From IMG/VR virus record IMGVR_UViG_2897333091_000001: a stretch of DNA of 24,951 nucleotides; one strand, 5' to 3'. Positions 7,211 to 24,951 of the stretch are shown piece after piece. Position 1 is the stretch's first letter. Every line of letters starts with the position of its first letter. Both the position numbers and the translations under genes were made by a program. This DNA is from a virus (taxonomy: Duplodnaviria > Heunggongvirae > Uroviricota > Caudoviricetes). The notes beneath the pieces were generated by a model. The model had not been told where the DNA came from. It saw only the letters and a list, made by a program, of their open reading frames with translations, and made no database searches.

Positions 7211-7233
7211 TTTGACACACTGGAGAAGCAACT

Positions 7234-7593: not shown

Positions 7594-7601
7594 GAGGCGG
7601 C

Positions 7602-8123
7602 TTGAGCGGACAAGATTATCGTGTACCTCCGCAGAATCGTGAATCAATACGTTCGATCGTCACATCTCTGCGGAGCGCATTTGGTATTACTGGGCTTAAA
7701 TTCCCTGTAATGGAGGTAATTGAGTTCGCATTGCCTCAGTTGATCCCGGATTTTGAGTTCCACATTGGTGGTATGAAAGAAATGGGAGAAACGCATGGTC
7801 TTACGTACCCACAGGAACATTTATTGATTCTGCGCGAAGACATTTACGAAGGCGCTTTGAATGGGGTAGGGCGAGATAGGATGACTGCCGCACATGAATT
7901 GGGTCATCTTCTTATGCACAGGAACATCGCATTTGCTCGTTCTGCCCCAGGGGTAAAAATCCGCCCTTTTGAGAGTAGTGAATGGCAAGCTAAATGTTTT
8001 AGTGGTGAGTTATTAGTGCCAGCTATGCATGCCAGTGTTTTAAAAGGTATGACGGCTGAGGATGTTGCTAAGGCATGCGGAGTTTCATTAGTGGCAGCGC
8101 GTTATCAGCTAGACAGAATGTAA
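7602..8123 (+). CDS. ImmA/IrrE-family (DUF955-like) zinc metallopeptidase domain protein
   Basis: 173 aa with HExxH motif (AAHELGHLLMH); TTG start 4 nt after an AGGAGG that overlaps the XRE stop, so the exact start is uncertain; gene pairing is typical of ImmR/ImmA or CapH/CapP regulator pairs. Confidence 0.78.
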   Translation: MSGQDYRVPPQNRESIRSIVTSLRSAFGITGLKFPVMEVIEFALPQLIPDFEFHIGGMKEMGETHGLTYPQEHLLILREDIYEGALNGVGRDRMTAAHELGHLLMHRNIAFARSAPGVKIRPFESSEWQAKCFSGELLVPAMHASVLKGMTAEDVAKACGVSLVAARYQLDRM

Positions 8124-8126
8124 AAA

Positions 8127-8162
8127 CCCCTTGCTTGGCGCCAACCAGTGCAAGGGGCTTTA
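8127..8162 (+). terminator. Hairpin terminator candidate (weak U tract)
   Basis: CCCCTTGC-15 nt-GCAAGGGG stem directly after the peptidase stop, followed by CTTTA. Confidence 0.4.
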
Positions 8163-8280
8163 GGTGATGAATCCAAGAGGCATCACCACCGTGAACAGCT
8201 TCGATAGACAGCCTGAAATTAACACCTTCAGGGAAGATGTTCAAGGGAAAAATCTCTCTTGGTAAGGAGGTGTTTTATGA

Positions 8281-8430
8281 ATGGGTTTGAAATCAATTGC
8301 TTCAAAAGCGGCGCCCAAAGGGTTCCGTTGGGTTTTCTGCCGTTACCGCAAGGTGCGTGGGAAATCAAAAAAAGTCCTTGATGCTCATGATTACGGGTAC
8401 GAGGCGTGGGCATTTTTAGTGCGCTGCTAA
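8281..8430 (+). CDS. Small basic ORF (49 aa), hypothetical
   Basis: Strong AAGGAGG SD (8264..8270); ATG at 8281 (alternative ATG at 8277 gives a 34-aa product in another frame); MGLKSIASKAAPKGFRWVFCRYRKVRGKSKK..; ends 15 bp before a strong terminator. Confidence 0.35.
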   Translation: MGLKSIASKAAPKGFRWVFCRYRKVRGKSKKVLDAHDYGYEAWAFLVRC

Positions 8431-8444
8431 GGGTTAGTATTTAA

Positions 8445-8466
8445 GGCACCTGCGGGTGCCTTTTTT
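8445..8466 (+). terminator. Rho-independent terminator
   Basis: GGCACC-tgcg-GGTGCC stem-loop followed by TTTTTT. Confidence 0.65.
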
Positions 8467-8563
8467 GTATCCTCTGACCCGATTGGTGTCTTGCTGAGCC
8501 TGATAACTACCAATTTTTGTTATTACTATTCTACTATCGCTCAATCATGATTGGCGGGAGTTG

Positions 8564-8690
8564 AAACCGCAGGCTCGTCGTATGCAAGAACGTGCTGCGG
8601 CTGGCTGGTGAACTTCCGATAGTGCGAGTATTGAATGATTTCCAGCCGTTACCGATTTTACGTATTTTTTGTATGAGAGGATTTACACCT
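8564..8690 (+). repeat. Direct repeat copy 2 (about 125 bp)
   Basis: Aligns along its length with 5266..5390, differing by scattered substitutions. Confidence 0.75.
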
Positions 8691-8930
8691 CCTCCCACCG
8701 ATCCTCCATGACTTTACGTCACTAAATTTTAACAGAGCCGGGAGCACTGCCGGAGCCTGCCTAATCATAATTCGCCCCCAAACTGGACGTACAGCGCTTT
8801 GTGTCCAGGTAGTGGGAAAATGAAGAAAGGACTGTCTGCCAGCAGTTCTGCGACCGCACCGGGCGCAGAGTATGCCAGCAGATTTCCGACTGGCCGCGCA
8901 GCTGCGATGGCACATCTGTCAGCAGGACGA

Positions 8931-9009
8931 AAAGTACTGAATGGTAGCGGCCAAACGGTGGTTTGAAAATGACCGGGCGACACGGTATTACGGGACTTTT
9001 ACAGTACTG
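8931..9009. repeat. 79-bp repeat unit A with AGTACTG terminal inverted repeats
   Basis: AAAGTACTGAATGGTAGCGGCCAAACGGT...GGCGACACGGTATTACGGGACTTTTACAGTACTG; near-identical copy at 9321..9397. Confidence 0.7.
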
Positions 9010-9320
9010 ATAATGAGGAAATGTATATGTATCAGCTTATAAAACTATATGGCGGGCAGATGGCCCCAAATCCATCCGAATACCGAATTTTGTTTCAGGG
9101 CAATTATCTCGCCGCTATATGGATTTATGCTTAGAGTAACAACCATGTAAATAATTGATAATTATAGATTGTTTAGCATGGTTCGCACTCTGAAATGCCG
9201 GGTGCGAGGTTTGGCGAAGATGGCCGATATTCGAGTGTTTTGCTCTTATATCGACGAAATAAGACAGGCGTGGCGGGATTTTTTCTGCGATTCCTGGGAA
9301 AAAAATGAATAAAAACAGTG

Positions 9321-9397
9321 AAAGTACTGAATGGTAGCGGCCAAACGGTACATAAAATGTCCGGGCGACACGGTATTACGGGACTTTTACAGTACTG
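9321..9397. repeat. 77-bp repeat unit B (copy of unit A)
   Basis: Same ends and core as 8931..9009, with a short divergent middle (GGTTTGAAAATGA vs ACATAAAATGT). Confidence 0.7.
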
Positions 9398-9733
9398 GTT
9401 ATGTGTAAAGATGCCAGCTGCGGGCCGTGTTCACCGGCGCACCGAGCGTAAAGTATGCCAGCAGATTTCAGGCTTGCCGCGCAGCTGCAGCATGCGGAAT
9501 GCCAGCACTGGACAGAATCACTGCACCGTCTATGAACTGGCGCCCCTTCATGCCCTGACCGGAGAGGCTTGGATGTACTCATGGAAGACAAAATGCCTAT
9601 TAATGAGGTAAGTATGCAAATTGAGTTAGGGCGAATGAGTGGGAAATAAAAATTACATATGTAGTGATTGCAAACCTGCTACATGAAGGTAACTGCAAAA
9701 AGCATATTACCTTCCTTGTAGCTATAGATAAGG

Positions 9734-11104
9734 TTATTTCTCTTTCTCAGGCAAAACGCGGTCTATAATTTCTTTATTAATTTTAGATGTCGTATTAATC
9801 AATTCGTTTATTTTATCAATTTCCATTTGATGTGACTTCTTGTCTATGGAGCTAAGCGGTGATCTTAATACTGATTTAAGAATGTTATCCATGAATAATG
9901 ATGATTTATCGGTATCGTTCTTATTGATTTCCTGCTTGAAAGATACAAGAGTTTCAGATAGCAATTTTTTATGTGCATAATCTTCACTGATGTTGTTTTG
10001 TTTAACATATTGTATGGCGCTAAATACAAAGAAGCCTATTAATACTGGAATCATTGAGAATCGAGCAAAGAATAATAATAATAAGTTGGGCTCTTGGCCT
10101 GTAGGAGGATAAGAACTAACTTCATTCATCTTGACAAGCATATAAACCACGAATGCTATACATACGATTGCAGCTCCTATTGATACAAAGGCCCAAAACC
10201 TTTTGTTTTTATTTGCGGTTTTGTATGCATCTCTAAAATGTCTTGATAGCCTATATGTTCCAGATAAATTCAATGCGGAATTAGCTTTAGAGTTCAATTC
10301 TTTCGCATTATTTATTTCACCAGATATAATGGTTTTTAATTCTTTAATTTCAGTTTTTTTATCAAGGAGATTTTTAATCTCACTGGCAGACTCAGCAGAT
10401 TTTTTAATGATTTCGTCTTGCATTGATTTGTTTGTATTAACGATATTGTTTAATGTTTCTTCAACAGTTCTTAGCTTTTCACTAGATGATTCTATACCAA
10501 TAAGTGCATCTCTGCTCTTTTTTAGTATGAATTCTATTTCAGAACCGGCGCTTTCAAATTTTTTCGTCTCGGCGTTCAAGTCCGTAACAAGTTTAATGAT
10601 TTTATCATGAGAGTTTGCATTTCTTACTGCTAACTCTCTGATTTGAGTTGCACTTATTTCAATTTCATTTTTCAGTTCTACCACTTTGGCTATTTCATTA
10701 GATGCTTGATTTTTGAACATAGCTAAGGTGTTAGGTTGATTATGCGTGCCTTGGATAAACTTAGATATTCTTGAATACCTAATTAAATCATCATTGATAG
10801 TGATAATGTTCCGATAAATATCATCTGAAAAAATATCAGAAATCATAGATGATATGTAGTTGTCCGTAAGTTTTAGTAGTGAAAAGATATTTTCTTTTTC
10901 TTCTTTTGTAAAGAATTCAGCATGTGCGAAAGGATGGAATTTATTGATTATGGAAATATGTTCGGACATATTTCCCAAAAGTTTGCTTCTTCTGTTGGCA
11001 ACGGTTATGTATTTAGGGTCACTTATGCTTTTTAGCATTCTTATGATTTTTTCAAAATTACCAAAAATAGATGCTGTGGTTGATGAAAATTCATTCAGAG
11101 TCAT
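9734..11104 (-). CDS. Orphan 456-aa protein: long helical/coiled-coil-like N-terminal region, two predicted TM helices, about 90-aa C-terminal tail; function unknown
   Basis: Uninterrupted ORF in very AT-rich DNA; K/E/I/N-rich N-terminal 290 aa; hydrophobic segments FWAFVSIGAAIVCIAFVVYMLV and LLLLFFARFSMIPVLIGFFVFSAIQYV; no neighbouring partner gene on the same strand. Confidence 0.7.
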   Translation of the reverse strand: MTLNEFSSTTASIFGNFEKIIRMLKSISDPKYITVANRRSKLLGNMSEHISIINKFHPFAHAEFFTKEEKENIFSLLKLTDNYISSMISDIFSDDIYRNIITINDDLIRYSRISKFIQGTHNQPNTLAMFKNQASNEIAKVVELKNEIEISATQIRELAVRNANSHDKIIKLVTDLNAETKKFESAGSEIEFILKKSRDALIGIESSSEKLRTVEETLNNIVNTNKSMQDEIIKKSAESASEIKNLLDKKTEIKELKTIISGEINNAKELNSKANSALNLSGTYRLSRHFRDAYKTANKNKRFWAFVSIGAAIVCIAFVVYMLVKMNEVSSYPPTGQEPNLLLLFFARFSMIPVLIGFFVFSAIQYVKQNNISEDYAHKKLLSETLVSFKQEINKNDTDKSSLFMDNILKSVLRSPLSSIDKKSHQMEIDKINELINTTSKINKEIIDRVLPEKEK

Positions 11105-12087
11105 ACTTTATCCATTTAGAAGTTGTGTATTGCAGTGTGTATTACAAAATGTTTGAAAGAAAAACATTTTGAGGAAAAACACTCTGATAATCAAGGAAGT
11201 ATTTTCAAGAGGTTGCATGGTGATCCATTATCCTTCTTCGCCAGCGGGGGATTAACCCCAGTCATGGCTTTCCGGTTAACCGGATATCATTGGGTTCAAT
11301 GCAGTACAAAAAATTGCCCGAAGCAACACTGAAATACCCTGTCACTCACCACACGTACCGCAGGCGACCCTGCCGGTGAGCCATTCTGATTGCGCAGTCT
11401 GTCCGGCGAGCCACTAACTCACTGGAAGAGAAAACAACATATGGCCGCGCAGCGGCGCGGGGATGCCCCTCGCAGGAAAAGTGAGTGACTACCCCGTCGA
11501 CGGCATTCAGCGCCTCACACAGCTGAAAACGGGACCGGTATACGGGCTGGCTAAAACAGGTCTGTTCATACCACGCTCCCCCCTGCCGAACGGGAACGCA
11601 CACTGTTCAACATCGCCCGTATCGATGTCATGTGTTCCGTCACGCATTCTGCCGATGCCAGCGCTGAGACTCGTCTTTCAGGAGGGGCCGCTGCAGGCCG
11701 AGATATGCGGTTGCCCGTCCCTTGCCCTTTTCAGCATTGACAACATCCAGCCTGTCGGGAGCTGCCGCATTGGGTTAGACCTGTGTAAGTCGATGCTAAC
11801 GTCTAACCATTTAACTTCCGCTTGTTGCTCATAACAGGCATTCACTTCAGTTACGGCAGAAAGGTATGCATGCTGGGTGGGGAAAGTGTGAAGGAAAAGA
11901 AGACTGCTGCGCCGTTTGTCGTCACGTTTATCTTCATTGGCTATGCAAGTCGTAATACAAGGTGGGACAAAACTGAGACACATAAGGCCTCGCAATGGCT
12001 TGCAAGGCTTTACATGTTTTGATGTGGTGGGACGTGTGAGCGCAGTGTTGATGGGGTAATGCTTTGAATTAGAAGCGGATTCTTATA

Positions 12088-12133
12088 ATTCGTAATGCGA
12101 AGGTCGTAGGTTCGACTCCTATTATCGGCACCA
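12088..12133 (+). repeat. Perfect 46-bp direct copy of the thrW 3' end (att core; right junction of element 1, left junction of element 2)
   Basis: ATTCGTAATGCGAAGGTCGTAGGTTCGACTCCTATTATCGGCACCA is identical to 1399..1444; flanks diverge immediately after one additional T. Confidence 0.9.
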
Positions 12134-12295
12134 TCTCAACTTCCCCAAACGTCCGTATTCATCCATAAGCACCCTGATTTATAACGATTTTACCGCTTTT
12201 TAGTCCGTCGTTGTCCGTGACCATCCAGTAGAATCCGATACAGAATGTGTATAGGATTGTGTATATGTTCCTGTTCGGTCTTGGAGCCTATACAC

Positions 12296-13471
12296 ATGCC
12301 TTTAAACGATATGCAGATTCGCCGCGCTAAGCCTGAAGATAAACCCTATACGCTTGGGGATGGGCAAGGCTTGTCATTGCTTATAGAACCTAATGGAAGC
12401 AAGAGCTGGCGGTTCCGCTATCGCTACGCCGGTAAACCCAAGATGATCTCGCTTGGCGTTTACCCAACGATCACCCTTGCCGATGCTCGTTCCCGTCGTG
12501 ATGAAGCTCGAAAACTTGTGGCAGAAGGAAAGAACCCTAGTGAGGTTCGAAAAGAGCAAAAGCTGGCTCTGCAAACAGAGTCAGAGAACGCCTTCGAAAA
12601 GATCGCCAGAGAGTGGCATCAACTTAAATCTGCTAAATGGTCAGCTGGATACGCATCAGACATCATGGAAGCGTTTAAGAACGACATTTTTCCTTATGTT
12701 GGAACAAGGCCTGTGGGAGAGATTAAACCGCTAGAGCTGCTGAACGTACTGCGTAAAATTGAGAAACGTGGTGCGTTGGAGAAAATGCGTAAAGTGCGGC
12801 AGCGTTGCTCCGAGGTGTTTCGCTACGCAATTGCAACAGGTAGGGCGGAGTACAATCCTGCTGCGGATCTCTCCAGCGCTCTCGAAGTGCATCAATCCAA
12901 TCATTTCCCGTTCTTAAAAGCTGATGAGATACCCGAATTTCTGCGTGCCTTAGAGAGTTACACCGGGAGTAAAATTGTCCAGATAGCAACGAAATTACTG
13001 ATGATTACGGGCGTGAGAACCATCGAATTACGCGCGGCATTATGGCAAGAATTTGATCTGGATAACGCTATTTGGGAAATTCCTGCTGAAAGGATGAAAA
13101 TGCGCAGGCCGCATCTTGTGCCATTGTCTACTCAGGCGTTAGATTTACTCAATGAACTCAAGACAATGACAGGCAACTATCGTTATGTTTTTCCTGGGCG
13201 AAATGATCCGAGTAAGCCAATGAGTGAGGCCGCTATCAATCAGCTTATAAAGCGACTTGGATACGGTGGCAGGCTTACAGGTCATGGATTTAGGCATATG
13301 ATGTCAACTATTTTACATGATGCTGGCTTTAATTCTCAATATATTGAATTACAGCTCGCTCACGTTGATAGTAATAGAATTCGCGGTACATATAATCATG
13401 CAACATTCATTGAAGAAAGAAGGAAAATGTTGAACTTTTTCTCTTCAACGTTATTTTTAAGGAAAATGTAA
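12296..13471 (+). CDS. int: Tyrosine recombinase, P4-type integrase
   Basis: 391 aa from the ATG at 12296 (MPLNDMQIRRAKPEDKPYTLGDGQGLSLLIEPNGSKSWRFRYRYAGK.. arm-binding N-terminus; C-terminal ..HGFRHMMSTILHDAGF..LAHVDSNRIRGTYNHA); sits next to the tRNA-derived att copy. Confidence 0.88.
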   Translation: MPLNDMQIRRAKPEDKPYTLGDGQGLSLLIEPNGSKSWRFRYRYAGKPKMISLGVYPTITLADARSRRDEARKLVAEGKNPSEVRKEQKLALQTESENAFEKIAREWHQLKSAKWSAGYASDIMEAFKNDIFPYVGTRPVGEIKPLELLNVLRKIEKRGALEKMRKVRQRCSEVFRYAIATGRAEYNPAADLSSALEVHQSNHFPFLKADEIPEFLRALESYTGSKIVQIATKLLMITGVRTIELRAALWQEFDLDNAIWEIPAERMKMRRPHLVPLSTQALDLLNELKTMTGNYRYVFPGRNDPSKPMSEAAINQLIKRLGYGGRLTGHGFRHMMSTILHDAGFNSQYIELQLAHVDSNRIRGTYNHATFIEERRKMLNFFSSTLFLRKM

Positions 13472-15288
13472 ATGAGAATTGAAACTGTTTATATTAAAGG
13501 ATTCAGGAATTACTGTGATGCTGTTATTAATTTTAATGAAACTAATTTGATTATAGGTGCAAATGATGTTGGAAAGACCAACCTATTATATGCCATTCGA
13601 TTATTACTTGATAAAAGTTTATCTGAATTAGATCTAGAACNNNNNNNNNNNNNNNNNNNNNNNNNNNNNNNNNNNNNNNNNNNNNNNNNNNNNNNNNNNN
13701 NNNNNNNNNNNNNNNNNNNNNNNNNNNNNNNNNNNNNNNNGAATTAGATCTAGAACCAAAAAGCAATGACTTTCATGTAAATTCGACAGGTGAACAGGTT
13801 GAAAATATAGAAATCACTATCAAGTTTACAGATGTTAGTGAAGATGCTGTAATATCTAAATTAGGAGGGTATGTTAGCGATGAAGGGGAAACATACATTA
13901 AGTATCTTGCTTCATCATTAACTATGGATTACAAGATATTACTTAGTCATGAACATAACAATTTTGATGAGGTTCCTAATAGATTTTACTTAAAGTGTTT
14001 AAGTCTAAGGTATATAAATTCGCAAAGAGATCTTGAAAAATACATTAAAATTGAAAAGAAGCATCTTTTAAGATTGGCGCAAGAAGTTCGTAGTGAAAAG
14101 GATACTGAAAATGATGGGGCGGTTTTTACTGAATTAAATAAGCTACTTACTGAAGTAAATGAAAAAGTTAAAGGAATAAGTTATGTTGCATCAGCAACAG
14201 AAGAGCTTAACGAGGAACTTAGAAAGTTATCCTATACTCATGATAGATTAACTGTTCAACTTGATACTGGTGCAATAGGGATTGACCAGTTTATAGAGAA
14301 ATTAGAATTAAGTGCGAATACAAATGGGAAGAAACTAATGCTTGGTGGCGATGGGTTTAATAACCAAATCCTTCTTGCGTTATGGAAAGCAAAAAGTGTT
14401 CGCGAGCATGATGTTGAAAGTGAAGTAGTGATCTATTGTATAGAGGAACCGGAAGCACATCTATTTCCTCACCAGCAAAGAAAATTGGCGGCCTATTTAA
14501 TCGATAAACTTCCAGGCCAAGCAATCGTTACAAGCCACTCACCCCAAATTGCAGTGAATTTTAAACCTGATTCAATCATAAAACTATACTATGATGATGG
14601 AGAGACTCTAGCCGCAAGTAATGGATGTTCTGATTGTATTAGCTCTGCATGGGATGGAATGGGCTACCGGATGAGTATTATTCCTGCTGAGGCATTTTTT
14701 GCTAACGTGGTTTTTTTGGTCGAGGGACCATCTGAGGTGATTTTTTACACTGAATTAGCAAAAGCATTAAGTATTGATCTTGATTATTATAACATCAGCA
14801 TTCTTTCTGTTGATGGTATCCAATTTGAAGTTTATAGAAAAATATTAACAGCTCTAAATATTAATTGGATCGTAAGAACAGACAATGATGCTTCAAAAGT
14901 ACCTCATAAGAATGAATGGCAATATGCTGGTGTAAATAGGGCGTTAGCACTGTGTGGAGAGAATAAAGAACCAAACTCAAGTATTCCTATAGATAGTAAA
15001 GCTTTGCATACTAAGTGGGGAACCATTTCACCAATAATAAATCCTAACGGCGTTTATATATCTTTTTTTGATCTTGAAGGAGATCTTGCTAATGACTTTT
15101 CGAAGCATGTTCTTGATTATGCAAGTAAGGATAATCTAGATGATGCCGCTGATTATTTGAGAGGAAAAAAAGCTATACGTATGCGTGAGTTAATTAAAGA
15201 GAAAAAAGCTTTTTTAACTGAACTGAAGAGCAAAGATATAGCCAGACCTCTAATACATGCACTGAAAATTGCTAGAGGTGAATTATGA
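13472..15288 (+). CDS. gajA: Gabija GajA-like OLD-family ATPase/Toprim endonuclease (interrupted by scaffold gap 13641..13740)
   Basis: N-terminus ..IKGFRNY..NLIIGANDVGKTNLLYAIRLLLDK (P-loop), later VIYCIEEPEAHLFPHQQRKL (Walker-B-like) and VVFLVEGPSEVIFY..IVRTDNDASK (Toprim), matching recalled GajA blocks; frame stays open from 13741 to 15288; starts directly after the int stop. Confidence 0.85.
13641..13740. other. Scaffold gap (100 N); flanks share a 16-bp overlap
   Basis: GAATTAGATCTAGAAC occurs at 13625..13640 and again at 13741..13756, in the gajA reading frame (ELDLE) on both sides. Confidence 0.9.
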
Positions 15289-16907
15289 AGCTAACTAAGG
15301 AACAGTTAGATGCAATTGATTACGAAGGTAATCTGGTTATAACTGCATGCCCAGGAAGTGGTAAAACAACAATACTCGTCCATAAGATTGCTGCCTGTTT
15401 ATCCCATTCCAAGGATTATCAGGGAGTTGTTGCGTTATCATATACGAATAAATCCAGCGAGGAGCTAAAAGCCAGATGTAGAAAATTGGGAGCAGAGTTA
15501 AATTCTAGCTTCTTTGGTACTATTGATAAGTTTTTCATTAACGAAATAATATTACCTTTTGTAAGGCAAGTATGGGGCAGAAACGAAAGCGCTCTCGAAG
15601 TAGTAAAGTATATAGATCTTTCTCAAGAATTAAAAGATAAGACAAATAAGTACTTTGACCGAGTGGATTTTTATTCTAATACTTCATTTGAGGGCATGGG
15701 TTCTCTGAGGGATATTTATTTAAAGGGGATGTTGATTTTAGACTTCCTTCCTCACTTGGCTTTTTATATAGTTAGAACATCATATTCTTGTCAGCGGTAT
15801 TTAATGGCAAAGTATATTGGTTTTTTTGTCGATGAGTATCAGGATACCGGTTATTTTACTCATCAGGTTTTCAAGTTCATACCAACGCTAGGGATGCCTC
15901 TTATTATCGTTGGTGATTTGGATCAATCAATTTATTTGTATTCTCACCGCAGTTCGGATTCACTAAAAGATTTCATGAATGATAGTGGTTTCTGTCATAA
16001 GGAAATTACAGTAAATCACAGATGTCACCCATCTATAGTAAATTACGCCAATAGAATTAAAGATTTTGAATGTCAACTAGCTCCGTGTGATGAGATTTTT
16101 GTTTATAGAAAATGTGTTGATGGCAATCAAATTGATATAGCTAAATGGATTGGTGAAATTCTTGATAATGTAAAAAATAAATTTTCAATATCTGATAATA
16201 AGGAGATTGCTATATTGGTAAGAAGCAATGCTTGCGCGGAGCTAGTTTCTGATAATTTAGTTGTTTCTAATAGGGCTTATTTGGATAATGATTTAACAAA
16301 GGCTGGTGGTAAGGTTTCTGGTCTTGTTAATGATTTATTATGTTACAGGTATAACTTAAATAAAACTGCTCAGTCTATTTTGGAGGGGGTTTTGGGAAGC
16401 AGTGTCAAAAGGAGCGAGGCTACTCGTATCCGTAAGGCTATTAAGCAGGTTAGAAGTGTTACAGATGCCTTTCTTATTGACGTAATAAATAAAATTGTAG
16501 TAACTCTTTTAGGGACTGAAATCGAGCAGCATCATAAGTCCGCTCTTTCAGAGATATTAGTTACTCCGAGGATGCAAAATAATTATTTGGATGTTAGAAG
16601 TGATGAAGTACAAATAATGACGTTACATAAGTCTAAAGGTCTTGAGTTTGACTTTGTTTTTCATTTGGATCTGTATGATTGGATTTTGCCTAAAAGAGTT
16701 TTCATAGAAGGAAGCTATGATGTTGTATTCGAAAATGAACAGCAATGCATAAATCTTCATTACGTAGGAATTACACGAGCAAGAAAAGGCATTATGCTAA
16801 TGCATTCTACGAAACGGTATAATGGTTCAGGTGATCTTAAGAACGGGGCTCCATCTCAATTTCTTTTGAAACCTGGGTTAGATGGCCTTTATAAAAAAAT
16901 AAATTAA
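15285..16907 (+). CDS. gajB: Gabija GajB-like UvrD/PcrA-type SF1 helicase
   Basis: 540 aa; LDAIDYEGNLVITACPGSGKTTILVHKI (motif I), FFVDEYQDTGY (motif II), LIIVGDLDQSIY, VNHRC, MTLHKSKGLEFDFVF (motif V/VI-like), matching recalled GajB blocks; 4-nt ATGA overlap with gajA. Confidence 0.88.
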   Translation: MKLTKEQLDAIDYEGNLVITACPGSGKTTILVHKIAACLSHSKDYQGVVALSYTNKSSEELKARCRKLGAELNSSFFGTIDKFFINEIILPFVRQVWGRNESALEVVKYIDLSQELKDKTNKYFDRVDFYSNTSFEGMGSLRDIYLKGMLILDFLPHLAFYIVRTSYSCQRYLMAKYIGFFVDEYQDTGYFTHQVFKFIPTLGMPLIIVGDLDQSIYLYSHRSSDSLKDFMNDSGFCHKEITVNHRCHPSIVNYANRIKDFECQLAPCDEIFVYRKCVDGNQIDIAKWIGEILDNVKNKFSISDNKEIAILVRSNACAELVSDNLVVSNRAYLDNDLTKAGGKVSGLVNDLLCYRYNLNKTAQSILEGVLGSSVKRSEATRIRKAIKQVRSVTDAFLIDVINKIVVTLLGTEIEQHHKSALSEILVTPRMQNNYLDVRSDEVQIMTLHKSKGLEFDFVFHLDLYDWILPKRVFIEGSYDVVFENEQQCINLHYVGITRARKGIMLMHSTKRYNGSGDLKNGAPSQFLLKPGLDGLYKKIN

Positions 16908-16924
16908 AAATTACTTGGCGCGCA

Positions 16925-16943
16925 ATGCTCTCCCCGCCACGCC
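16925..16943 (-). other. cos-like site resembling P2/186-family 19-nt cohesive-end sequence
   Basis: Reverse complement GGCGTGGCGGGGAGAGCAT is one mismatch from the 186-type and three from the P2/P4-type cohesive end as I recall them; lies between the cargo and psu, where P4 carries cos. Confidence 0.5.
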
Positions 16944-17044
16944 CGCCCGCTTTGTGGGGCGGTTTTAATGCAGTTGTACTGTCACGCTCAGGCTGCGCCG
17001 GGAATGGCGCGGTCTGCAGAAAATGAGGCAGGGAAACGCATGCA

Positions 17045-17077
17045 AAGCCATGCACCTTATCGATGCATGGCTTTTTT
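17045..17077 (+). terminator. Rho-independent terminator between gajB and psu
   Basis: AAGCCATGCA-ccttatcga-TGCATGGCTT stem-loop followed by TTTTTT; an A-run on the other side allows bidirectional function. Confidence 0.6.
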
Positions 17078-17107
17078 CAGTAAAAACAGGCGGATTTTCG
17101 GGGAATT

Positions 17108-17680
17108 TTACACAGACTGACGTGATGCCAGTTGCGCACTTTTACGCGAAAAAATCATGTTCTGCGCAGGGGTGAATTTTTCACGGCTGTCATCCACCGA
17201 AGCCGCGTCAGGCCTGAATCCGATGGTCGTTAAAATGTCGCTATCCTGTGCGGAATAATTAATTTTTTCCCCCTTCGCAAGCCAGGACAGAAGGGCTTCA
17301 CGCAGGGCATCTGTGGCACGCTGAATGGCACAGTTTCGGGCAATGACCGTCAGCTCACTGTAGCCCATCAGCTCCGGTGCCAGTGCCGCCGCCAGTGCTG
17401 TGCCGTGCTGCTGCATAAAATCATTCAGCCGGTCGCGGATGCTGATGTGCTGAACGGCTTCATGCGAACGAATATAACGACCGGCGGCCTGATTCACCTG
17501 CCATTTTCTGACTTCGATAATATTGCGTAATTCGTCCAGGCGACTGACGTTTCTGCCTTCTCCTGACAGAAGCCGCAGGTATTCCTGTTCGGCCGCTGCC
17601 AGCTCATTTTTGCGTTGCAGCCATGCTGCTTTGTTATTCTGACAGGTGTCAAAGGCCTGCTGTAAGGCTGTGCTTTCCAT
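17108..17680 (-). CDS. psu: P4 Psu-like polarity suppression / capsid decoration protein
   Basis: 190 aa MESTALQQAFDTCQNNKAAWLQRKNELAAAEQEYLRLL.., same length and near-identical to recalled P4 Psu; last gene of the sid-delta-psu operon. Confidence 0.88.
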   Translation of the reverse strand: MESTALQQAFDTCQNNKAAWLQRKNELAAAEQEYLRLLSGEGRNVSRLDELRNIIEVRKWQVNQAAGRYIRSHEAVQHISIRDRLNDFMQQHGTALAAALAPELMGYSELTVIARNCAIQRATDALREALLSWLAKGEKINYSAQDSDILTTIGFRPDAASVDDSREKFTPAQNMIFSRKSAQLASRQSV

Positions 17681-17753
17681 CGTTATCTCTTTCTCATCAT
17701 GCTGAAGAATAAAAATACGGTGTGCGGCGACGGCCGGTGTTAACCGACAGCCC

Positions 17754-18254
17754 TCATTCCAGACGCAGCGAATATGATTGTGTTTTTAACCGTACTGGCG
17801 GCAGTTCCTGTTTTTCATGCAGGCTTTCTGCCAGTTCGTCCGGTGTGACCGGGCGGACAATGAAACGGTTGATGGTCTGAAGCGTTTTAAACACCAGACC
17901 ACAGCCCGGATCCGTGCACACATAAAAACGCTCGGTGACTTCCTGAGACAGACGCCGCGATGTTCTTGACAGTGCAAGGCCTTTACATCTCCGACAACAA
18001 TATCCGGTAACAAGCATTCTTTTCGGGCGTTTCATACTGCCGGAGGCTGACGTCAGTGAATCGCGATATCTCTGTTTGCCTGAAATGTATTCCATTCCTG
18101 AATCTTTACAGTCAGAGAAAAAGCTTTCACTCGCTTCAAATGTCGCAGAGCAATAAATATTCCGGCACTGTGCAATCATTATCTTGGTGCCATCGTCCAT
18201 GAAATGTGCGCGACGGGTGTGAGCAACATGTCCACACGACGGGCAGTAAATCAT
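17754..18254 (-). CDS. delta: P4 Delta-like late transcription activator (two tandem Ogr-type zinc-finger units)
   Basis: 166 aa; MIYCPSCGHVAHTRRAHFMDDGTKIMIAQCRNIYCSATF.. and a second unit ..YCCRRCKGLALSRTSRRLSQEVTERFYVCTDPGCGLVF..; ATGA overlap with the sid stop. Confidence 0.88.
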   Translation of the reverse strand: MIYCPSCGHVAHTRRAHFMDDGTKIMIAQCRNIYCSATFEASESFFSDCKDSGMEYISGKQRYRDSLTSASGSMKRPKRMLVTGYCCRRCKGLALSRTSRRLSQEVTERFYVCTDPGCGLVFKTLQTINRFIVRPVTPDELAESLHEKQELPPVRLKTQSYSLRLE

Positions 18255-18985
18255 GACAGCAGTCCTCTGGCCTTAAGCTCTGCTCCCTGCTGGTCTATTT
18301 TGTCCTGCCACACCTTGCGCTGTGCCGGTGTGCCTGCCACCTCATAATCCATGTGCGGAAGTGTTGCCGCTGACAGTCCGGTCAGCCGGAGAACCGGCTC
18401 GCCGGTGAGGCTGATTTGCATCTGTTTTATTTTCTGTTCCAGCGATGATTTCACCTGCTGCATGACAGCTTTATCGGGTGCGACGTAGCCCTGATGCCCG
18501 GTGGTGTTGGCGAGCGGATTTTCCTGTACCTGGATGCTCAGATGCATTGCCCGGACAAGCGCCTCACAGGTTTCATTCAGGGCGTGTTCCAGCTCATGCT
18601 CTGCATACAGACTCAGCAGGTGATGATGTGCCTTCCGGTAGGCGGTGGCCGTGCTGTCACACGCCCCTTTCAGGCGTTCGCGTTCAAAATTCAGCACCAC
18701 GGCCAGATTGTCATATTCCTGTACCAGCTCCCGGCGTGCCACGCGCTCAATGTGGCGCTGTTTCAGCTCGTCGCTCAGGACACCACCGGCTGCACGAAAG
18801 GCCGTGCGCCAGTCGTCAGCGTCGTTTCCGTCGGCCTGCGCCAGCGCATTTTTTTCCTGCTCTGCCCGTTCAATGGCCGTAACGGTCTCATCCATCAGGC
18901 GGGCGTTCTCAAGATGGGCGGCTCTGGACTTTTCCAGTTGTGCCAGTGCGGGTTGCAGATATTCAGGGATGGTGTTGTCAGACAT
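18251..18985 (-). CDS. sid: P4 Sid-like capsid size determination protein
   Basis: 244 aa from the ATG at 18985 (MSDNTIPEYLQPALAQLEK..), matching the recalled length and N-terminus of P4 Sid; GAGGAG SD. The ORF track starts 18 nt upstream at a GTG (19003), which I consider less likely. Confidence 0.85.
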   Translation of the reverse strand: MSDNTIPEYLQPALAQLEKSRAAHLENARLMDETVTAIERAEQEKNALAQADGNDADDWRTAFRAAGGVLSDELKQRHIERVARRELVQEYDNLAVVLNFERERLKGACDSTATAYRKAHHHLLSLYAEHELEHALNETCEALVRAMHLSIQVQENPLANTTGHQGYVAPDKAVMQQVKSSLEQKIKQMQISLTGEPVLRLTGLSAATLPHMDYEVAGTPAQRKVWQDKIDQQGAELKARGLLS

Positions 18986-19057
18986 TTTCCGGCTCCTCGT
19001 CACTTCAGGTTAAGAAAATTGTGACGTACACCGGACAACAACACGACGCATTGCAGA

Positions 19058-19075
19058 TGTGCCAGCCCTGACACA
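19058..19075 (-). promoter_or_regulatory. Ogr/Delta-responsive late-promoter dyad (TGT-N12-ACA) upstream of sid
   Basis: TGTGCCAGCCCTGACACA lies about 70 bp upstream of the sid start codon, the position and pattern expected for P2/P4 late promoters such as Psid. Confidence 0.6.
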
Positions 19076-19154
19076 GGAGACTCATCCTCAGACCGGCAAG
19101 CCAGGAAAAGGTCGCAGGAAAAACCGGCTTACTGTTTGTTTTTTTATATTTTAC

Positions 19155-19258
19155 TGTTCACCTCTGTTCACCTTAATAAAAAAGATAAGTAATACAGTAA
19201 GTTAAATGGTGAACAATCGCAGTAATGACTGTTCACCGTCTGTTCACCACTGTTCACC
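19155..19258. repeat. Iteron cluster, six copies of TGTTCACC (five direct, one inverted); P4 ori-like
   Basis: TGTTCACC at 19155, 19165, 19230, 19241 and 19251, with GGTGAACA at 19208; this octamer is the alpha-protein binding iteron of P4 ori/crr as I recall. Confidence 0.6.
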
Positions 19259-19537
19259 CGCTCATGGACTTTTTGTGCTGTTTATTACTGTTTGTTTTTA
19301 TTAATTCGCCGGGAATGAATAAGAAAAAACGATTTGTATTTCACTATAAAAATTACGAATTGCTTTAAGTGGCTTTAAATGACTTTAAGTGGAGATGAAC
19401 AAAAAATACACAAGCATTGTAAGGCTGCCGGAACAAATCCCCCCTGTTGCGTCTGCTGAAAATATTCACAAAATAAAGCGCTACCCGAAGCCGGACGGAC
19501 TTATCCGGTGCTGTATGGACATTAACGAGGTAGCCCG

Positions 19538-19804
19538 ATGCAAGCTGTTTTTTCTTCCCCGTCTCCCGCCCCTGTGACGCCACTGATGCCGCTGCCGGAC
19601 ATCACACAGGAGCGTTTTTTACGTCTTCCGGAAGTGATGCACCTGTGCGGCCTGTCACGCTCGACCATCTATGAACTCATCCGTAAGGGGGAATTTCCGC
19701 CGCAGGTGAGTCTTGGCGGTAAAAATGTGGCCTGGCTGCACTCTGAAGTCACCGCATGGATGGCCGGGCGCATTGCCGGACGCAAACGGGGGTACGACGC
19801 ATGA
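19538..19804 (+). CDS. AlpA/Vis-family small DNA-binding regulator (excision/transcription control)
   Basis: 88 aa; core ..[50 protein letters not shown].. is typical of AlpA/Vis HTH proteins; GAGG SD 7 nt upstream; an alternative internal start at 19586 is possible. Confidence 0.75.
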
Positions 19805-20202
19805 TGATGCCTGTTCTGCAAAAACTTCCTTTTTCTGGCTTGCCTTTTTCCGGCATTTGCGGATATAGTTTTTCCGCTGCCGCAAAATCGGCAGCCGGGC
19901 GTGGAAACCCGAGTATGTTATCGGCGACATATGACGCGCCATGCGTCTTTTTTTGTGTCGCAATCAACGCCACAGAGCGCCAGATTATGGTGTGGTGTGT
20001 GGTCAGTCGAGCAAATGGCACTCCGTGCATTCTGCCCGCGTCCGCTCATTATACCGCAGAGTCAATGGTAGCTCAGGCGGGGCAGCCTCCGGGCTGGCCG
20101 GTTTCCGATAACGCCGGTATTTCCACCCCCGTCTGGGCTATCGCCATCGAGCGTGGAAACTCCGGCGATAGCGTCATTTACGCTGTTATCGGAGGTTGCC
20201 TT

Positions 20203-20400
20203 ATGGCTACGACCCTTACCCCCTCACACCCTGAATTTGTCTTTGTGTTTGCGGCTGTCCGTCGCACAGACCGTCATCCCCGTATCTGTATGCTTCGCAC
20301 CGTCGCCGGTGATGAACGCAGCGCCCGCCGTTCCCTTGTCCGTGACTATGTGCTCTCCCTTGCTGCCCGTCTGCCGGTGGTGGAGGTGTCCCGTGCGTAA
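20203..20400 (+). CDS. Hypothetical small protein (65 aa)
   Basis: ATG with GGAGG SD; [65 protein letters not shown]; the longer upstream extension of this frame (from 19756/19801) looks non-protein-like. Confidence 0.35.
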
Positions 20401-20680
20401 TAAAAAAGCCCCTCAGACCGTCTCAGCACGTCATGACGCCCGTGAACACCTCAGCATTGAGGCTTACCATAAGCTCAACCGCGCCAGCGCCGTATCCCAG
20501 TTTGTTGGGGGTGATTTGATTCACCGTGAACTCTCCGGCCTGCATCAGCTCTACATTCCGCATATTTTCAGCTACCTGAATGAAGATATTGATTTTGTGC
20601 TGAATGAGCTGAAAGCCAAAGGCCTGTGCCGCGATTTTCTCGCCCAGCAGAAAGACCGGGGAGACAGGACGCATGTTTGA
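20393..20680 (+). CDS. Hypothetical P4-like early-region protein (95 aa, GTG start)
   Basis: GTG preceded by GGAGGTG SD; ..[65 protein letters not shown]..; overlaps neighbouring genes by a few nt at both ends; the N-terminal extension from 20153 was rejected. Confidence 0.45.
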
Positions 20681-21128
20681 TTTTCCCCAGCCCGGTGAGA
20701 TTTACCGTTCTGCCGGTTTTCCCGATGTGGCCGTGGTCGGCATTCTGGAAGACGGTATTCCGTGGGAAATGCCGTACCGCTGCCCGGACATTGTCTGGAA
20801 CCCGTACCGCCGTAAATTCAGTATCCTTGTGCGTATCCTCGCTGACGGGCGCACCACAGACATCCCGCTGGGGCGTTTTCTGCGGGAATTTACCTGTGAC
20901 CGTCCTGACCTGTTTAAACGCAGCCCCGTAAACCGGCATGCGGTACTGAAAGAAATGGCCGGAGACCCGGAATTACAGAAATGGCGGGAGAAATATCTGG
21001 ATATTTACCCGCAGGACACTGTTCCGGTCAGCCGGGCGGCACCGGTGGCGCGGGAATGGCGGGAAATTCCCCGCACGGAGCCTGACCCGGAAATCACCCC
21101 GGATAACAGTTACCGCAATTATCTGTAA
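20673..21128 (+). CDS. Hypothetical P4-like early-region protein (151 aa)
   Basis: ATG with GGAGACAGG SD; protein-like composition; size and position match the 151-codon ORF upstream of alpha in P4 as I recall it. Confidence 0.55.
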   Translation: MFDFPQPGEIYRSAGFPDVAVVGILEDGIPWEMPYRCPDIVWNPYRRKFSILVRILADGRTTDIPLGRFLREFTCDRPDLFKRSPVNRHAVLKEMAGDPELQKWREKYLDIYPQDTVPVSRAAPVAREWREIPRTEPDPEITPDNSYRNYL

Positions 21129-21263
21129 TTAAAAAACGACACCCGAAAAATTAAATGTGCGTATTCGCGCAGGGATACGCACGTCTTCAGGAGACGCAGA
21201 TATGCCTTATCAGTTAATGCAACCGGCACGGAATGCAGTCATCTGTCACAGGGAGGAAAACAA

Positions 21264-21584
21264 ATGAAAACACCCTTACCGCCCGTCTTACGCGCTGCCC
21301 TTTACCGTCGCGCTGTCGCCTGTGCCTGGCTGACCGTGTGCGAACGTCAGCACCGCTACCCGCATCTCACCCTTGAGTCACTGGAAGCGGCCATCGCCGC
21401 TGAGCTGGAAGGCTTTTATCTGCGCCAGCACGGTGAGGAAAAAGGGCGTCAGATAGCCTGTGCCCTGCTGGAAGATTTAATGGAATCCGGCCCCCTGAAG
21501 GCCGCGCCGTCGCTGTCCTTTCTCGGGCTGGTTGTGATGGATGAACTCTGTGCCCGTCACATAAAAGCGCCGGTACTGCACTGA
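21264..21584 (+). CDS. Hypothetical P4-like early-region protein (106 aa)
   Basis: Strong GGGAGG SD 4 nt before the ATG; ends 14 bp before the primase start. Confidence 0.6.
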
Positions 21585-21598
21585 AGGAGAACAACACC

Positions 21599-23932
21599 AT
21601 GAAAATGAACGTAACCGCCACCGTCAGCCATGCGCTCGGCCACTGGCCGCGTATTCTCCCGGCGCTGGGGATTCAGGTGCTGAAAAACCGTCATCAGCCC
21701 TGTCCGGTCTGTGGCGGGAGTGACCGCTTCCGTTTTGATGACAGGGAGGGGCGCGGCACCTGGTACTGCAATCAGTGTGGTGCCGGTGACGGCCTGAAAC
21801 TGGTTGAAAAGGTGTTTGGTGTCTCCCCGTCCGACGCGGCCGCAAAGGTGGCTGCCGTGACCGGCAGCCTGCCCCCGGCTGACCCGGCAGTGACGGCTGC
21901 CGCCGGTGCTGAAACAGACGCTGCCCGGAAGAACGCCGCCGCACTGGCACAAACCCTGATGGCGAAAACCCGTCCCGGAACCGGTAACGCCTACCTGACC
22001 CGCAAGGGCTTTCCCGGCCGGGAATGCCGGATGCTGACCGGCACACACAGAGCCGGTGGCGTGAGCTGGCGTGCCGGTGACCTTGTGGTGCCACTGTATG
22101 ACGACAGCGGCGAACTGGTTAACCTTCAGTTAATCAGTGCTGACGGCCGTAAGCGCACCCTGAAAGGCGGACAGGTCAGGGGCACCTGTCACACCCTTGA
22201 AGGACAGAATCAGGCCGGAAAACGTCTGTGGATAGCGGAGGGATACGCGACCGCACTTACCGTGCATCACCTGACCGGTGAAACGGTGATGGTGGCGCTT
22301 TCTTCCGTGAACCTCCTTTCTCTGGCCAGCCTTGCCCGGCAGAAGCATCCGGCCTGTCAGATTGTCCTTGCCGCAGACCGTGACCTCAGCGGTGACGGCC
22401 AGAAAAAAGCCGCCGCAGCCGCAGATGCGTGTGAAGGTGTTGTTGCCCTGCCGCCGGTCTTCGGTGACTGGAATGATGCCTTCACGCAGTACGGCGGGGA
22501 GGCCACCCGTAAGGCCATTTACGATGCCATCCGGCCACCGGCTGAAAGCCCGTTCGACACCATGAGTGAAGCGGAGTTTTCCGCCATGAGTACCAGCGAA
22601 AAGGCCATGCGTATCTATGGGCATTACGGCGAGGCGCTCGCGGTCGATGCCAACGGCCAGCTTCTGTCCCGTTATGAAAATGGTGTCTGGAAGGTGCTGC
22701 CACCACAGGACTTTGCCCGGGATGTGGCCGGGCTGTTTCAGCGTCTGCGCGCGCCGTTCTCCTCCGGGAAGGTGGCCTCCGTGGTGGACACCCTGAAGCT
22801 GATTATTCCGCAGCAGGAAGCCCCCTCCCGCCGCCTGATTGGCTTTCGTAACGGCGTGCTCGACACGCAGAACGGCACGTTCCACCCGCACAGTCCGTCA
22901 CACTGGATGCGCACCCTGTGCGATGTGGATTTCACCCCGCCGGTGGACGGTGAAACGCTGGAGACCCACGCCCCCGCGTTCTGGTGCTGGCTTGACCGTG
23001 CCGCCGGTGGCCGTGCGGAAAAACGCGACGTGATTCTGGCCGCACTGTTTATGGTGCTGGCAAACCGCTACGACTGGCAGCTCTTTCTGGAGGTGACCGG
23101 TCCCGGCGGCAGCGGCAAAAGTATCATGGCCGAAATCGCCACCCTGCTGGCCGGGGAGGATAACGCCACGTCGGCCACCATCGAGACGCTGGAATCCCCG
23201 CGTGAACGTGCCGCGTTAACTGGCTTCTCACTGATACGCCTGCCGGACCAGGAAAAATGGAGCGGCGACGGTGCCGGACTCAAGGCCATCACCGGCGGTG
23301 ATGCGGTGTCCGTTGACCCGAAATACCGGGATGCGTACTCCACGCATATCCCGGCGGTGATTCTGGCCGTGAACAATAACCCGATGCGCTTCACCGACCG
23401 CAGCGGCGGCGTGTCACGCCGGCGGGTGATTATTCACTTCCCGGAACAGATAGCCCCGCAGGAGCGCGACCCGCAGCTTAAGGACAAAATCACCCGCGAG
23501 CTGGCGGTCATCGTGCGTCACCTGATGCAGAAATTCAGCGACCCGATGCTCGCCCGGTCACTGCTTCAGTCCCAGCAGAACTCAGACGAGGCGCTGAACA
23601 TCAAACGGGATGCCGACCCGACGTTTGATTTTATCGGCTATCTGGAAACCCTGCCGCAGACCAGCGGCATGTATATGGGGAACGCCAGTATCATCCCGCG
23701 CAATTACCGTAAATACCTCTATCACGCCTATCTGGCCTACATGGAGGCAAACGGCTACCGGAATGTACTCAGTCTGAAAATGTTCGGGCTGGGGCTGCCG
23801 GTGATGCTGAAGGAATACGGACTGAATTACGAGAAGCGCCATACCAAACAGGGGATACAGACCAACCTGACGCTGAAAGAGGAAAGCTACGGCGACTGGC
23901 TGCCAAAATGTGACGCCCCTGCAACAACCTGA
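21599..23932 (+). CDS. alpha: P4 alpha-type primase/helicase (zinc-binding primase N-terminus, Toprim, C-terminal P-loop NTPase)
   Basis: 777 aa; N-terminal ..HQPCPVCGGSDRFRFDDREGRGTWYCNQCG.. zinc motif; Walker A EVTGPGGSGKS; AAGGAG SD; same length as recalled P4 alpha. Confidence 0.9.
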   Translation: MKMNVTATVSHALGHWPRILPALGIQVLKNRHQPCPVCGGSDRFRFDDREGRGTWYCNQCGAGDGLKLVEKVFGVSPSDAAAKVAAVTGSLPPADPAVTAAAGAETDAARKNAAALAQTLMAKTRPGTGNAYLTRKGFPGRECRMLTGTHRAGGVSWRAGDLVVPLYDDSGELVNLQLISADGRKRTLKGGQVRGTCHTLEGQNQAGKRLWIAEGYATALTVHHLTGETVMVALSSVNLLSLASLARQKHPACQIVLAADRDLSGDGQKKAAAAADACEGVVALPPVFGDWNDAFTQYGGEATRKAIYDAIRPPAESPFDTMSEAEFSAMSTSEKAMRIYGHYGEALAVDANGQLLSRYENGVWKVLPPQDFARDVAGLFQRLRAPFSSGKVASVVDTLKLIIPQQEAPSRRLIGFRNGVLDTQNGTFHPHSPSHWMRTLCDVDFTPPVDGETLETHAPAFWCWLDRAAGGRAEKRDVILAALFMVLANRYDWQLFLEVTGPGGSGKSIMAEIATLLAGEDNATSATIETLESPRERAALTGFSLIRLPDQEKWSGDGAGLKAITGGDAVSVDPKYRDAYSTHIPAVILAVNNNPMRFTDRSGGVSRRRVIIHFPEQIAPQERDPQLKDKITRELAVIVRHLMQKFSDPMLARSLLQSQQNSDEALNIKRDADPTFDFIGYLETLPQTSGMYMGNASIIPRNYRKYLYHAYLAYMEANGYRNVLSLKMFGLGLPVMLKEYGLNYEKRHTKQGIQTNLTLKEESYGDWLPKCDAPATT

Positions 23933-23939
23933 CCCACCT

Positions 23940-23966
23940 GACCGGCATCTGCCGGTCTTTTTTTTA
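23940..23966 (+). terminator. Rho-independent terminator after alpha
   Basis: GACCGGC-atct-GCCGGTC stem-loop followed by a run of nine T. Confidence 0.7.
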
Positions 23967-23992
23967 TCCCGACATCCCCCGAAGGTAAACAA

Positions 23993-24290
23993 TCCAGTGT
24001 TCACCCTTTACCGTATATTCACCCGTTATCATACTGAAATTAAAAGAGAAAAACGAAAGGTGAACAGTGTGAACAATCAAATCAAAAAAAACTTTTTTCT
24101 TCCTGAGTGATTTCAGTACGGGGGATTAATCACCGGTATGAGTCACACCGGCAGAATGCCGGAGGTGAAGAATCGAATGTTCACCCTTCACCCATTATTC
24201 ACCACCTATCATGCTGAAATAAAAGGAGAAAACAGAAAGGTGAACAGTGTGAACAGTTCTTTCGAAAAAAAACTTTTTTCTTATTTTTAA
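23993..24290. repeat. crr-like region: two direct repeats of about 120 bp, each with TGTTCACC-type iterons
   Basis: 23993..24110 and 24171..24290 align along their length (..GTGTTCACCCTT..ATTCACC..ATCATACTGAAAT.AAAAG.GAAAA.CGAAAGGTGAACAGTGTGAACA..AAAAAAACTTTTTTCTT); matches the recalled architecture of the P4 cis replication region. Confidence 0.65.
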
Positions 24291-24392: not shown

Positions 24393-24430
24393 GTTCATTC
24401 CTATTATCGCACCATTAAAATCAAAGAGTT
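24393..24430 (+). repeat. Degenerate third copy of the thrW 3' end plus flank (probable right att junction of element 2)
   Basis: GTTCATTCCTATTATCGCACCATTAAAATCAAAGAGTT aligns with the tRNA 3' end and its downstream flank at 1421..1460 (GTTCGACTCCTATTATCGGCACCATTTAAATCAATAAGTT) with two small indels and a few substitutions. Confidence 0.55.
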
Positions 24431-24540
24431 ACCCCATATTTAAATACACCACGTTTCCTCCTGTGCCGCATTTGTGCCATTGTAACCTTGGCAATTCATC
24501 AAAATACTGTTCTGACATCAGGCAGTGCAGGTGCAGCTAT

Positions 24541-24951
24541 TTAAACCAATTGCTGCCGCCATTCTTTGACGTAGTCAATCAGGGCGCGGAGCTTTGGTGC
24601 AATATTGCGACGCTGTGGGAAATACAGATAGAAGCCCGGAAATTGTGGAAGAAAGTCATCAAGCAGCGATACAAGCTTACCGCTTTCAATATATGGCCTG
24701 AAAGTTTCCTGAGTGGCAATTGTTATTCCTCCGCCGGCAAGAGCCAGCCTCAACATCAGACGCAGATCATTAGTCGTAATCTGCGGTTCAATCGCAAGGT
24801 CGAAAGTTCTCCCGTTTTCTTCAAATGGCCAGCGATAAGGCGCAACCTCCGGGGACTGACGCCAGCCGATACACTTATGGGTATTTCCCCCGGAGGCGAG
24901 AAAGCGCTCTCCACGCCCGGCCGCAAGGATCAGGACGACGGGGGCAGGCAT
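24541..24951 (-). CDS. LysR-family transcriptional regulator, C-terminal substrate-binding-domain fragment (likely truncated gene)
   Basis: 136-aa ORF; ..DLRLMLRLALAGGGITIATQETFRPYIESGKLVSLLDDFLPQFPGFYLYFPQRRNIAPKLRALIDYV.. is typical of the C-terminal half of LysR-type regulators; no HTH N-terminal domain; the ATG coincides with the window edge. Confidence 0.55.
   Translation of the reverse strand: MPAPVVLILAAGRGERFLASGGNTHKCIGWRQSPEVAPYRWPFEENGRTFDLAIEPQITTNDLRLMLRLALAGGGITIATQETFRPYIESGKLVSLLDDFLPQFPGFYLYFPQRRNIAPKLRALIDYVKEWRQQLV

Follow-up and report, generated by a model that had tools for sequence, protein, structure and literature searches.

Late promoter and replication origin of satellite phage P4 predicted in a near-identical P4-type prophage of the Escherichia coli chromosome

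Judging from the sequence, positions 19004-19258 of the window (the whole stretch of 24,951 nucleotides analysed here) are the late promoter Psid and the replication origin (ori) of satellite phage P4, carried in a near-identical P4-type prophage of the Escherichia coli chromosome. It is close to certain that the feature is part of the control region that extends from 18986 to 19537, between sid and orf88, in a satellite prophage of the P4 type that has integrated at thrW, and that this region matches P4 almost base for base. The feature is already known: the late promoter and the origin of P4 were characterised in the 1980s-90s and are annotated in GenBank. The discovery value of this re-identification of known P4 features is accordingly small, and its practical use lies in the annotation of P4-like prophages. 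PGAP leaves the sid-orf88 region blank, so that the coordinates of ori, crr (the cis replication region), Psid and the second late promoter, PLL, can be transferred to such prophages; the sid-orf88 intergenic region occurs, without annotation, in 1005 of the 5426 complete E. coli genomes (about a fifth). The analysis covers identity to the annotated features of P4, the integrity of the genes and the family-wide conservation of the features.

Identity of the control region with phage P4

In a megablast search, positions 16944-24279 of the window match positions 4291-11624 of phage P4 (X51522/NC_001609) with 97.8% identity, in one unbroken match of 7.3 kb. Pairwise alignment of the control region gives a still closer correspondence: over 18980-19206 the identity to P4 is 100%, and the 255 bp of 19004-19258 depart from P4 at a single position, 19207, which adjoins an iteron but lies outside it. 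The collinear DNA extends from cos through psu-delta-sid-ori-orf88-cI-epsilon-orf151-cnr-alpha to crr, and the six iterons of ori, both dyads of Psid and the type 2 repeats are the same as in P4 in sequence and in position.

The element also differs from P4 in several respects. Between its integrase and P4 Int the identity falls to 38%, and the element occupies thrW, whereas P4 has its own attP core; the Gabija genes gajA and gajB stand in place of gop, beta and cII of P4; and there are three substitutions in the 19-nt cos end, three in the spacer of the PLL dyad and one in an octamer of crr.

The late promoter Psid

The earlier note on this DNA had pointed to a TGT-N12-ACA dyad at 19058-19075, and this dyad (TGTGCCAGCCCTGACACA, minus strand) is indeed present and is the same as the one upstream of sid in P4; it is the predicted activator (Delta/Ogr) site I of Psid. 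Site II, a second TGT-N12-ACA dyad that is likewise predicted, lies on the minus strand at 19020-19037, overlaps the -10/-35 spacer and is also identical to P4. Both exact dyads precede the sid start codon on the minus strand. The left boundary of the control region had been drawn from a sid GTG codon at 19003, but sid starts at the ATG at 18985, preceded by the Shine-Dalgarno sequence GAGGAG, and encodes 244 amino acids as in P4.

The consensus of the P2 late promoters is TGT-N12-ACA (PMC3931495). In the P2 record, the activator sites of pO, pP, pV and pF have their centres at -55 to -58 relative to the start sites given there. When site I is placed at -55.5 by this P2 geometry, the predicted Psid start would lie close to 19011, with the hexamer CACAAT 7 nt before it and the sid ATG 26 nt after it. 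CACAAT itself (19018-19023, minus strand) is a putative -10-like hexamer, picked out by reading the sequence, and has no -35 consensus. The start positions given here for Psid and PLL thus come from the geometry of the annotated P2 sites and not from any record. An older guess at the -10 element differs, the 1984 record X02534 having marked what corresponds to 19067-19073 of the window.

A scan of 18900-19700 with the sigma-70 consensus yielded no promoter match, as expected of activator-dependent promoters. Under the same start-site geometry, site II would be centred at about -17.5, in agreement with the Delta sites that reportedly lie near -55 and -18 at Psid, and site II probably modulates the activation of this promoter. 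Occurrence statistics carry no weight here: the window shows no enrichment of TGT-N12-ACA (9 occurrences compared with 5.75 expected, and 12 of 100 shuffles reach 9), so that the significance of site I derives from its position and its identity to P4, not from the frequency of the motif.

Compared with the P2 late promoters (pP, pO, pV and pF), Psid has in common the TGT...(A/C)CA dyad and, presumably, the activator centre that P2 has at -55 to -58, and TGTGTCAG is common to site I and pO (TGTGTCAGTGATAAGCCA). The P2 promoters, however, are each one base off the strict TGT-N12-ACA (pV by spacing), whereas Psid and PLL of this element are exact, and Psid differs further in its additional promoter-proximal dyad.

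The Cox boxes and the divergent promoter PLL

On the other side of the origin, three tandem 10-bp repeats occupy 19363-19392 on the minus strand, upstream of PLL; these are annotated in P4 as 'ori type 2 repeats' and are the Cox boxes of P2. On the minus strand they read TTAAAGCCA and TTAAAGTCA, together with one copy that has a single mismatch. The Cox-box consensus is TTAAA(G/C)NC(A/C), and P2 Cox binds upstream of P4 PLL and activates it (PMC3936717); the consensus pattern is matched at 19370-19378 and 19380-19388.

The predicted TGT-N12-ACA dyad of PLL is located at 19418-19435 on the plus strand, divergent from Psid. With this dyad placed at -55.5, PLL would start at about 19482, ahead of orf88/vis at 19538, the first ORF downstream of the promoter. 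The three substitutions that separate the dyad from its P4 counterpart all fall in the N12 spacer, leaving TGT and ACA intact. Near -18 of PLL, a second exact TGT-N12-ACA was looked for and is absent. The earlier reading of this region had recovered the main features, but three others were absent from it: the Cox boxes, the dyad of PLL and site II of Psid.

The origin, alpha and crr

Six exact copies of the octamer TGTTCACC start at 19155, 19165, 19208 (minus strand), 19230, 19241 and 19251, the last of them ending at 19258. They lie 80-183 bp beyond the site I dyad, where the earlier note had placed six octamers at 80 to 180 bp. The whole window contains 12 exact copies compared with 0.66 expected, a number that none of 100 shuffles reaches. 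The annotation of P4 includes rep_origin, 'ori type 1 repeats' in six copies and 'ori type 2 repeats' in three, as well as crr and the 120-bp repeats within it, and when a constant offset of 16943 is added to the type 1 repeats, each of them hits one octamer, with the orientation +,+,-,+,+,+ kept. That every type 1 repeat of P4 coincides with an octamer indicates that the cluster is the P4 origin and not just 'ori-like', as it had been called. The comparison of the octamers with the P4 iterons had been set beforehand as a refuting test; in the alignment, the octamers and the annotated ori type 1 and crr repeats correspond base for base.

Iterons 1 and 2 (19155-19162 and 19165-19172, plus strand) correspond to the P4 'ori type 1 repeats' 2212-2219 and 2222-2229. 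Iteron 3 (19208-19215, minus strand) is inverted and makes up an 8-bp inverted repeat with iteron 4, and iterons 4-6 (19230-19258, plus strand), arranged as TGTTCACC-N3-TGTTCACC-N2-TGTTCACC, form the conserved core of the origin together with iteron 3. Within each group (19155 and 19165; 19230, 19241 and 19251), the plus-strand iterons are spaced about one helical turn apart. The iterons are embedded in an AT-rich block (19129-19340; 67.5% A+T compared with 45% for the element), the presumed unwinding region, and are flanked by direct repeats of TTACTGTTTGTTTTT at 19129-19150 and 19285-19306.

The octamer recurs next to alpha, as had been noted previously, in crr, which directly follows the alpha ORF; the distance to the ori cluster is 4.7-4.8 kb. 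The crr consists of two 120-bp direct repeats (23979-24098 and 24159-24278, plus strand) with a spacing of 180 bp and 60 bp between them. Each repeat contains five type-I-like octamers, two exact and three with one mismatch; the exact ones start at 23998, 24059 (minus strand), 24178 and 24239 (minus strand), and there are six copies with one mismatch. This region is collinear with P4 crr and has single substitutions only. The first octamer of repeat 1 (23984-23991) reads TGTTTACC here compared with TGTTCACC in P4, and this is the only difference from P4 at the level of iterons across ori and crr.

The gene for alpha, which combines primase, SF3 helicase and origin-binding protein, occupies 21599-23932 on the plus strand and encodes 777 amino acids. 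An inactivating lesion in alpha was sought and none was found: the ORF is uninterrupted, and its product aligns with P4 alpha without gaps at 768 identical residues out of 776. None of the substitutions affects the zinc ribbon, the Toprim motif, the Walker A box or residues 464-772, a stretch that takes in the origin-binding domain. Pfam searches detect Zn_Ribbon_Prim, Toprim_3, D5_N, DUF5906 and Pox_D5, and residues 671-770 match PDB 1KA8, the winged-helix origin-binding domain of P4 (E=1e-63). This organisation into primase, SF3 helicase and winged-helix domains has been described (PMC2777425). Upstream of alpha, orf106 (cnr, the copy-number regulator; 21264-21584, plus strand) encodes a protein identical to P4 ORF106 in all 106 residues.

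Genes, ends and genomic setting of the prophage

The core set of P4-like satellites comprises int, psu, delta, sid, alpA, epsilon and alpha (de Sousa & Rocha 2022, PMC8628076). All seven components are present in the element in the conserved order, and Psu, Delta, Sid, ORF88, epsilon, ORF151, Cnr and alpha are full length and 97.6-100% identical to P4. The first gene of the Psid operon is sid (capsid size determination; 18251-18985, minus strand), the product of which is 98.4% identical to P4 Sid. It is followed by delta (17754-18254, minus strand; 166 aa, 97.6% identical to P4 Delta), so that the element itself encodes a Cys4 zinc-finger activator for late promoters, of the Ogr/Delta type; the Pfam domain Ogr_Delta is found in Delta in two stretches, corresponding to two fingers. 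Farther along the same strand lies psu (17108-17680; 190 aa, 98.9% identical to P4 Psu, Pfam Psu). In the opposite direction, orf88 (19538-19804, plus strand) encodes an excisionase-regulator of the vis/alpA type that is 98.9% identical to P4 ORF88 and contains Pfam Phage_AlpA. Of the remaining core components, int is located at 12245-13471 and epsilon at 20393-20680.

Rfam models detect the C4/CI immunity RNA at 20061-20148 (77.9 bits), its c4-a1b1 targets at 19863-19915 and isrK at 19876-19953. Within the block homologous to P4, divergence is greatest in the immunity region (19863-20148 and 19984-20397): the frame of the old 'cI ORF' is 88% identical to P4, compared with 98-100% elsewhere. 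This divergence may reflect a different immunity specificity.

The element of about 12.3 kb is bounded by att repeats derived from thrW and contains a cos site of the P2 family; it is apparently a complete P4-type prophage. On the left, attL (12088-12133, plus strand) repeats the 3' end of the tRNA-Thr gene thrW perfectly over 46 bp; on the right, attR (24399-24416, plus strand), which reads TCCTATTATCG-CACCAT, is a short copy of the same 3' end with a 1-nt deletion. The 19-nt cohesive end of cos (16925-16943, minus strand) reads GGCGTGGCGGGGAGAGCAT compared with GGCGAGGCGGGGAAAGCAC in P4/P2. The surrounding cos region (16916-16976) is 95% identical to P2-family phages, such as vB_EcoM-613R3 and the '186'-named phages of Yersinia, and this identity across the junction to sequenced phages indicates that the cos end is a natural variant rather than a product of decay. 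The element combines Cox boxes of the P4/P2 type at PLL with a cos end closest to those of other P2-family phages.

The cargo hotspot between int and cos (13472-16907) encodes the Gabija proteins GajA (an OLD-type ATPase-nuclease) and GajB (a UvrD-type helicase). The window is a scaffolded draft with two runs of 100 N, at 3274-3373 and, within the element, at 13641-13740. A 16-bp overlap, GAATTAGATCTAGAAC, is duplicated on either side of the latter gap, and the apparent disruption of gajA into ORFs of 91 and 454 aa was rejected as an artefact of this gap, the gene being a single intact one of 566 aa in E. coli HUM3355.

Homology with P4 ends at 24279. A truncation of the element after crr was considered and rejected: in P4 itself attP is located about 200 bp from crr, and attR here is 120 bp from it. 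Beyond attR lies the chromosomal lysR-pseudogene/paoD flank, as in HUM3355. The flank at 24393-24951 also matches the last 560 bp of OP434518 (phi458), annotated there as 'tail assembly protein'; the end of OP434518 is probably host DNA or mis-annotated.

At thrW there is a tandem array (1369-12133 and on), in which the P4-type element is second, behind an unrelated prophage remnant of about 10.6 kb that lies between tRNA-Thr and the 46-bp copy serving as attL. The genes of the remnant encode a 387-aa integrase, an HTH excisionase-like ORF, a tail-fibre assembly protein, a Pin-type invertase and an HTH/M78 peptidase pair. The thrW element of HUM3355 is collinear with the one described here, about 99% identical to it and has the same right end, but is alone at thrW rather than second in an array.

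Proposed mode of action and alternative explanations

Binding, start sites and the activity of this element are carried over from the biology of P4, and the near-identity to P4 appears to make such a transfer of function very safe. On this basis, Psid would be read leftward as an activator-dependent promoter that has no -35 element. The element's own Delta, or the Ogr/B protein of a P2-family helper, would bind the dyad near -55 (19058-19075) and recruit RNA polymerase, and the resulting transcription of sid-delta-psu would supply Sid, Delta and Psu. In replication, the C-terminal winged-helix domain of alpha would bind the six iterons of ori and the ten iteron-like sites of crr, its SF3 helicase would open the AT-rich DNA, and its N-terminal DnaG-type primase would then prime synthesis, with Cnr (orf106) expected to restrain replication and limit the copy number. 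Binding of the iterons by alpha has reportedly been established for P4, and this is taken here alongside the GenBank annotations. Derepression of the prophage would be brought about by the Cox and Ogr proteins of a helper, acting through the three Cox boxes and the PLL dyad.

A mainly regulatory role of the octamers, as an operator array for the divergent promoters Psid and PLL and not as a replication origin, is suggested by their location between the two promoters and by the autoregulation that is frequent among iteron-binding initiators. Such a role is nevertheless highly improbable, given that the same octamers recur in crr, 3' of alpha and distant from any promoter, that the P4 record annotates them as the origin and the cis-required replication region, that their AT-rich setting is typical of an unwinding element, and that alpha carries the solved origin-binding domain of P4. 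For the dyad taken by itself, the excess of TGT-N12-ACA over expectation is so slight that one could think of chance occurrences devoid of function; extended to the motifs as a whole, this explanation has a practically negligible probability, considering the failure of all shuffles to produce 12 octamers, the coincidence of the positions with annotated P4 features and the conservation of these features across 24 species.

A different question is whether the prophage still works. The earlier note argued for a functional satellite and against a decayed island; the full-length core genes, cos, the att sites and the immunity RNA bear this out as far as the integrity of the element is concerned, and that it is functional is something we infer. 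It is unlikely, but less so than the alternatives above, that the sites and genes are genuine and the element is nonetheless a stranded prophage, no longer a working satellite because cos is mismatched to the available helpers, attR is defective or no helper is present. The differences at three of the 19 cohesive-end positions from P4/P2 would fit this possibility but for the evidence that this cos is a natural variant, and the 1-nt deletion in the attR core relative to attL has to be set against HUM3355, where this element, unchanged at its right end, occurs alone at thrW. One crr octamer is weakened, and no P2-type helper genes are found within the window, where the neighbouring island is only a prophage remnant; yet every core ORF is full length and 97.6-100% identical to P4, which would be unlikely under relaxed selection. 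Taken as a P4-type prophage with its apparatus in place, the element is a good candidate for an active, Gabija-carrying satellite.

Conservation across P4-like elements

The P4-like satellites of Enterobacterales (PMC8628076) have the core gene set and its order in common with this element and differ from it in their Cox-box cassettes and cargo. In an alignment of nine E. coli/P4 versions of the control region, one of them GF3-3, for which a BLAST match of 160 bp shows only 82% identity, the iterons keep their spacing and all but one of the six are exact; the TGT and ACA of site I survive, while the spacer and the flanks change. As an exact motif, site II is found, among the loci scanned, solely in P4 and the window, and in the divergent GF3-3 element TCT replaces its TGT.

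The Cox-box cassette of about 30 bp (alignment columns ~365-425) is swapped wholesale in other P4-like elements of E. coli, with at least three unrelated versions, one of which consists of a different 10-bp tandem repeat (CCTTCAGAAC / CCTTTGAGAC / CCTTCCAGTC). The iterons and the PLL core beside the swapped cassette remain conserved, and so does the Psid dyad. The Cox-box cassette may be a determinant of helper specificity. A broader proposition, that the signals by which P4-like satellites sense and use their helpers are modular and independently swappable, is put forward tentatively and strikes us as rather doubtful; if it were true, the choice of helper able to wake a given satellite would be set by the Cox-box cassette rather than by the late promoters.

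A scan of one genome per species found the exact iteron triple at 32 loci. In 24 of these, the locus is a P4-like element of Enterobacterales in which the triple is located between sid and orf88/alpA and alpha is 55-85% identical. An exact TGT-N12-ACA, variable in its N12, lies 167-172 bp from the triple, as in the element described here, at 15 of the 24 P4-like loci; the Erwinia/Pantoea members of this group have no exact TGT-N12-ACA.

Arrays of TGTTCACC were also encountered in Haemophilus parainfluenzae and its relatives, as 5-7 repeats of TTGTTCACC in the same orientation, with a spacing of about 10 bp, in AT-rich DNA (L019, 3145-3251; L025, 4639-4733; and L022, L029, L035, L039, L043 and L044). 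These were rejected as P4-like elements, there being no homologue of a P4 protein within about 4 kb. Some of the Haemophilus arrays end an HK97-type head-gene module (HNH, connector, portal, protease and capsid), and others adjoin an ORF for a ParB-N-like protein of 456 aa together with a Dam methylase, or a TonB receptor gene of the host.
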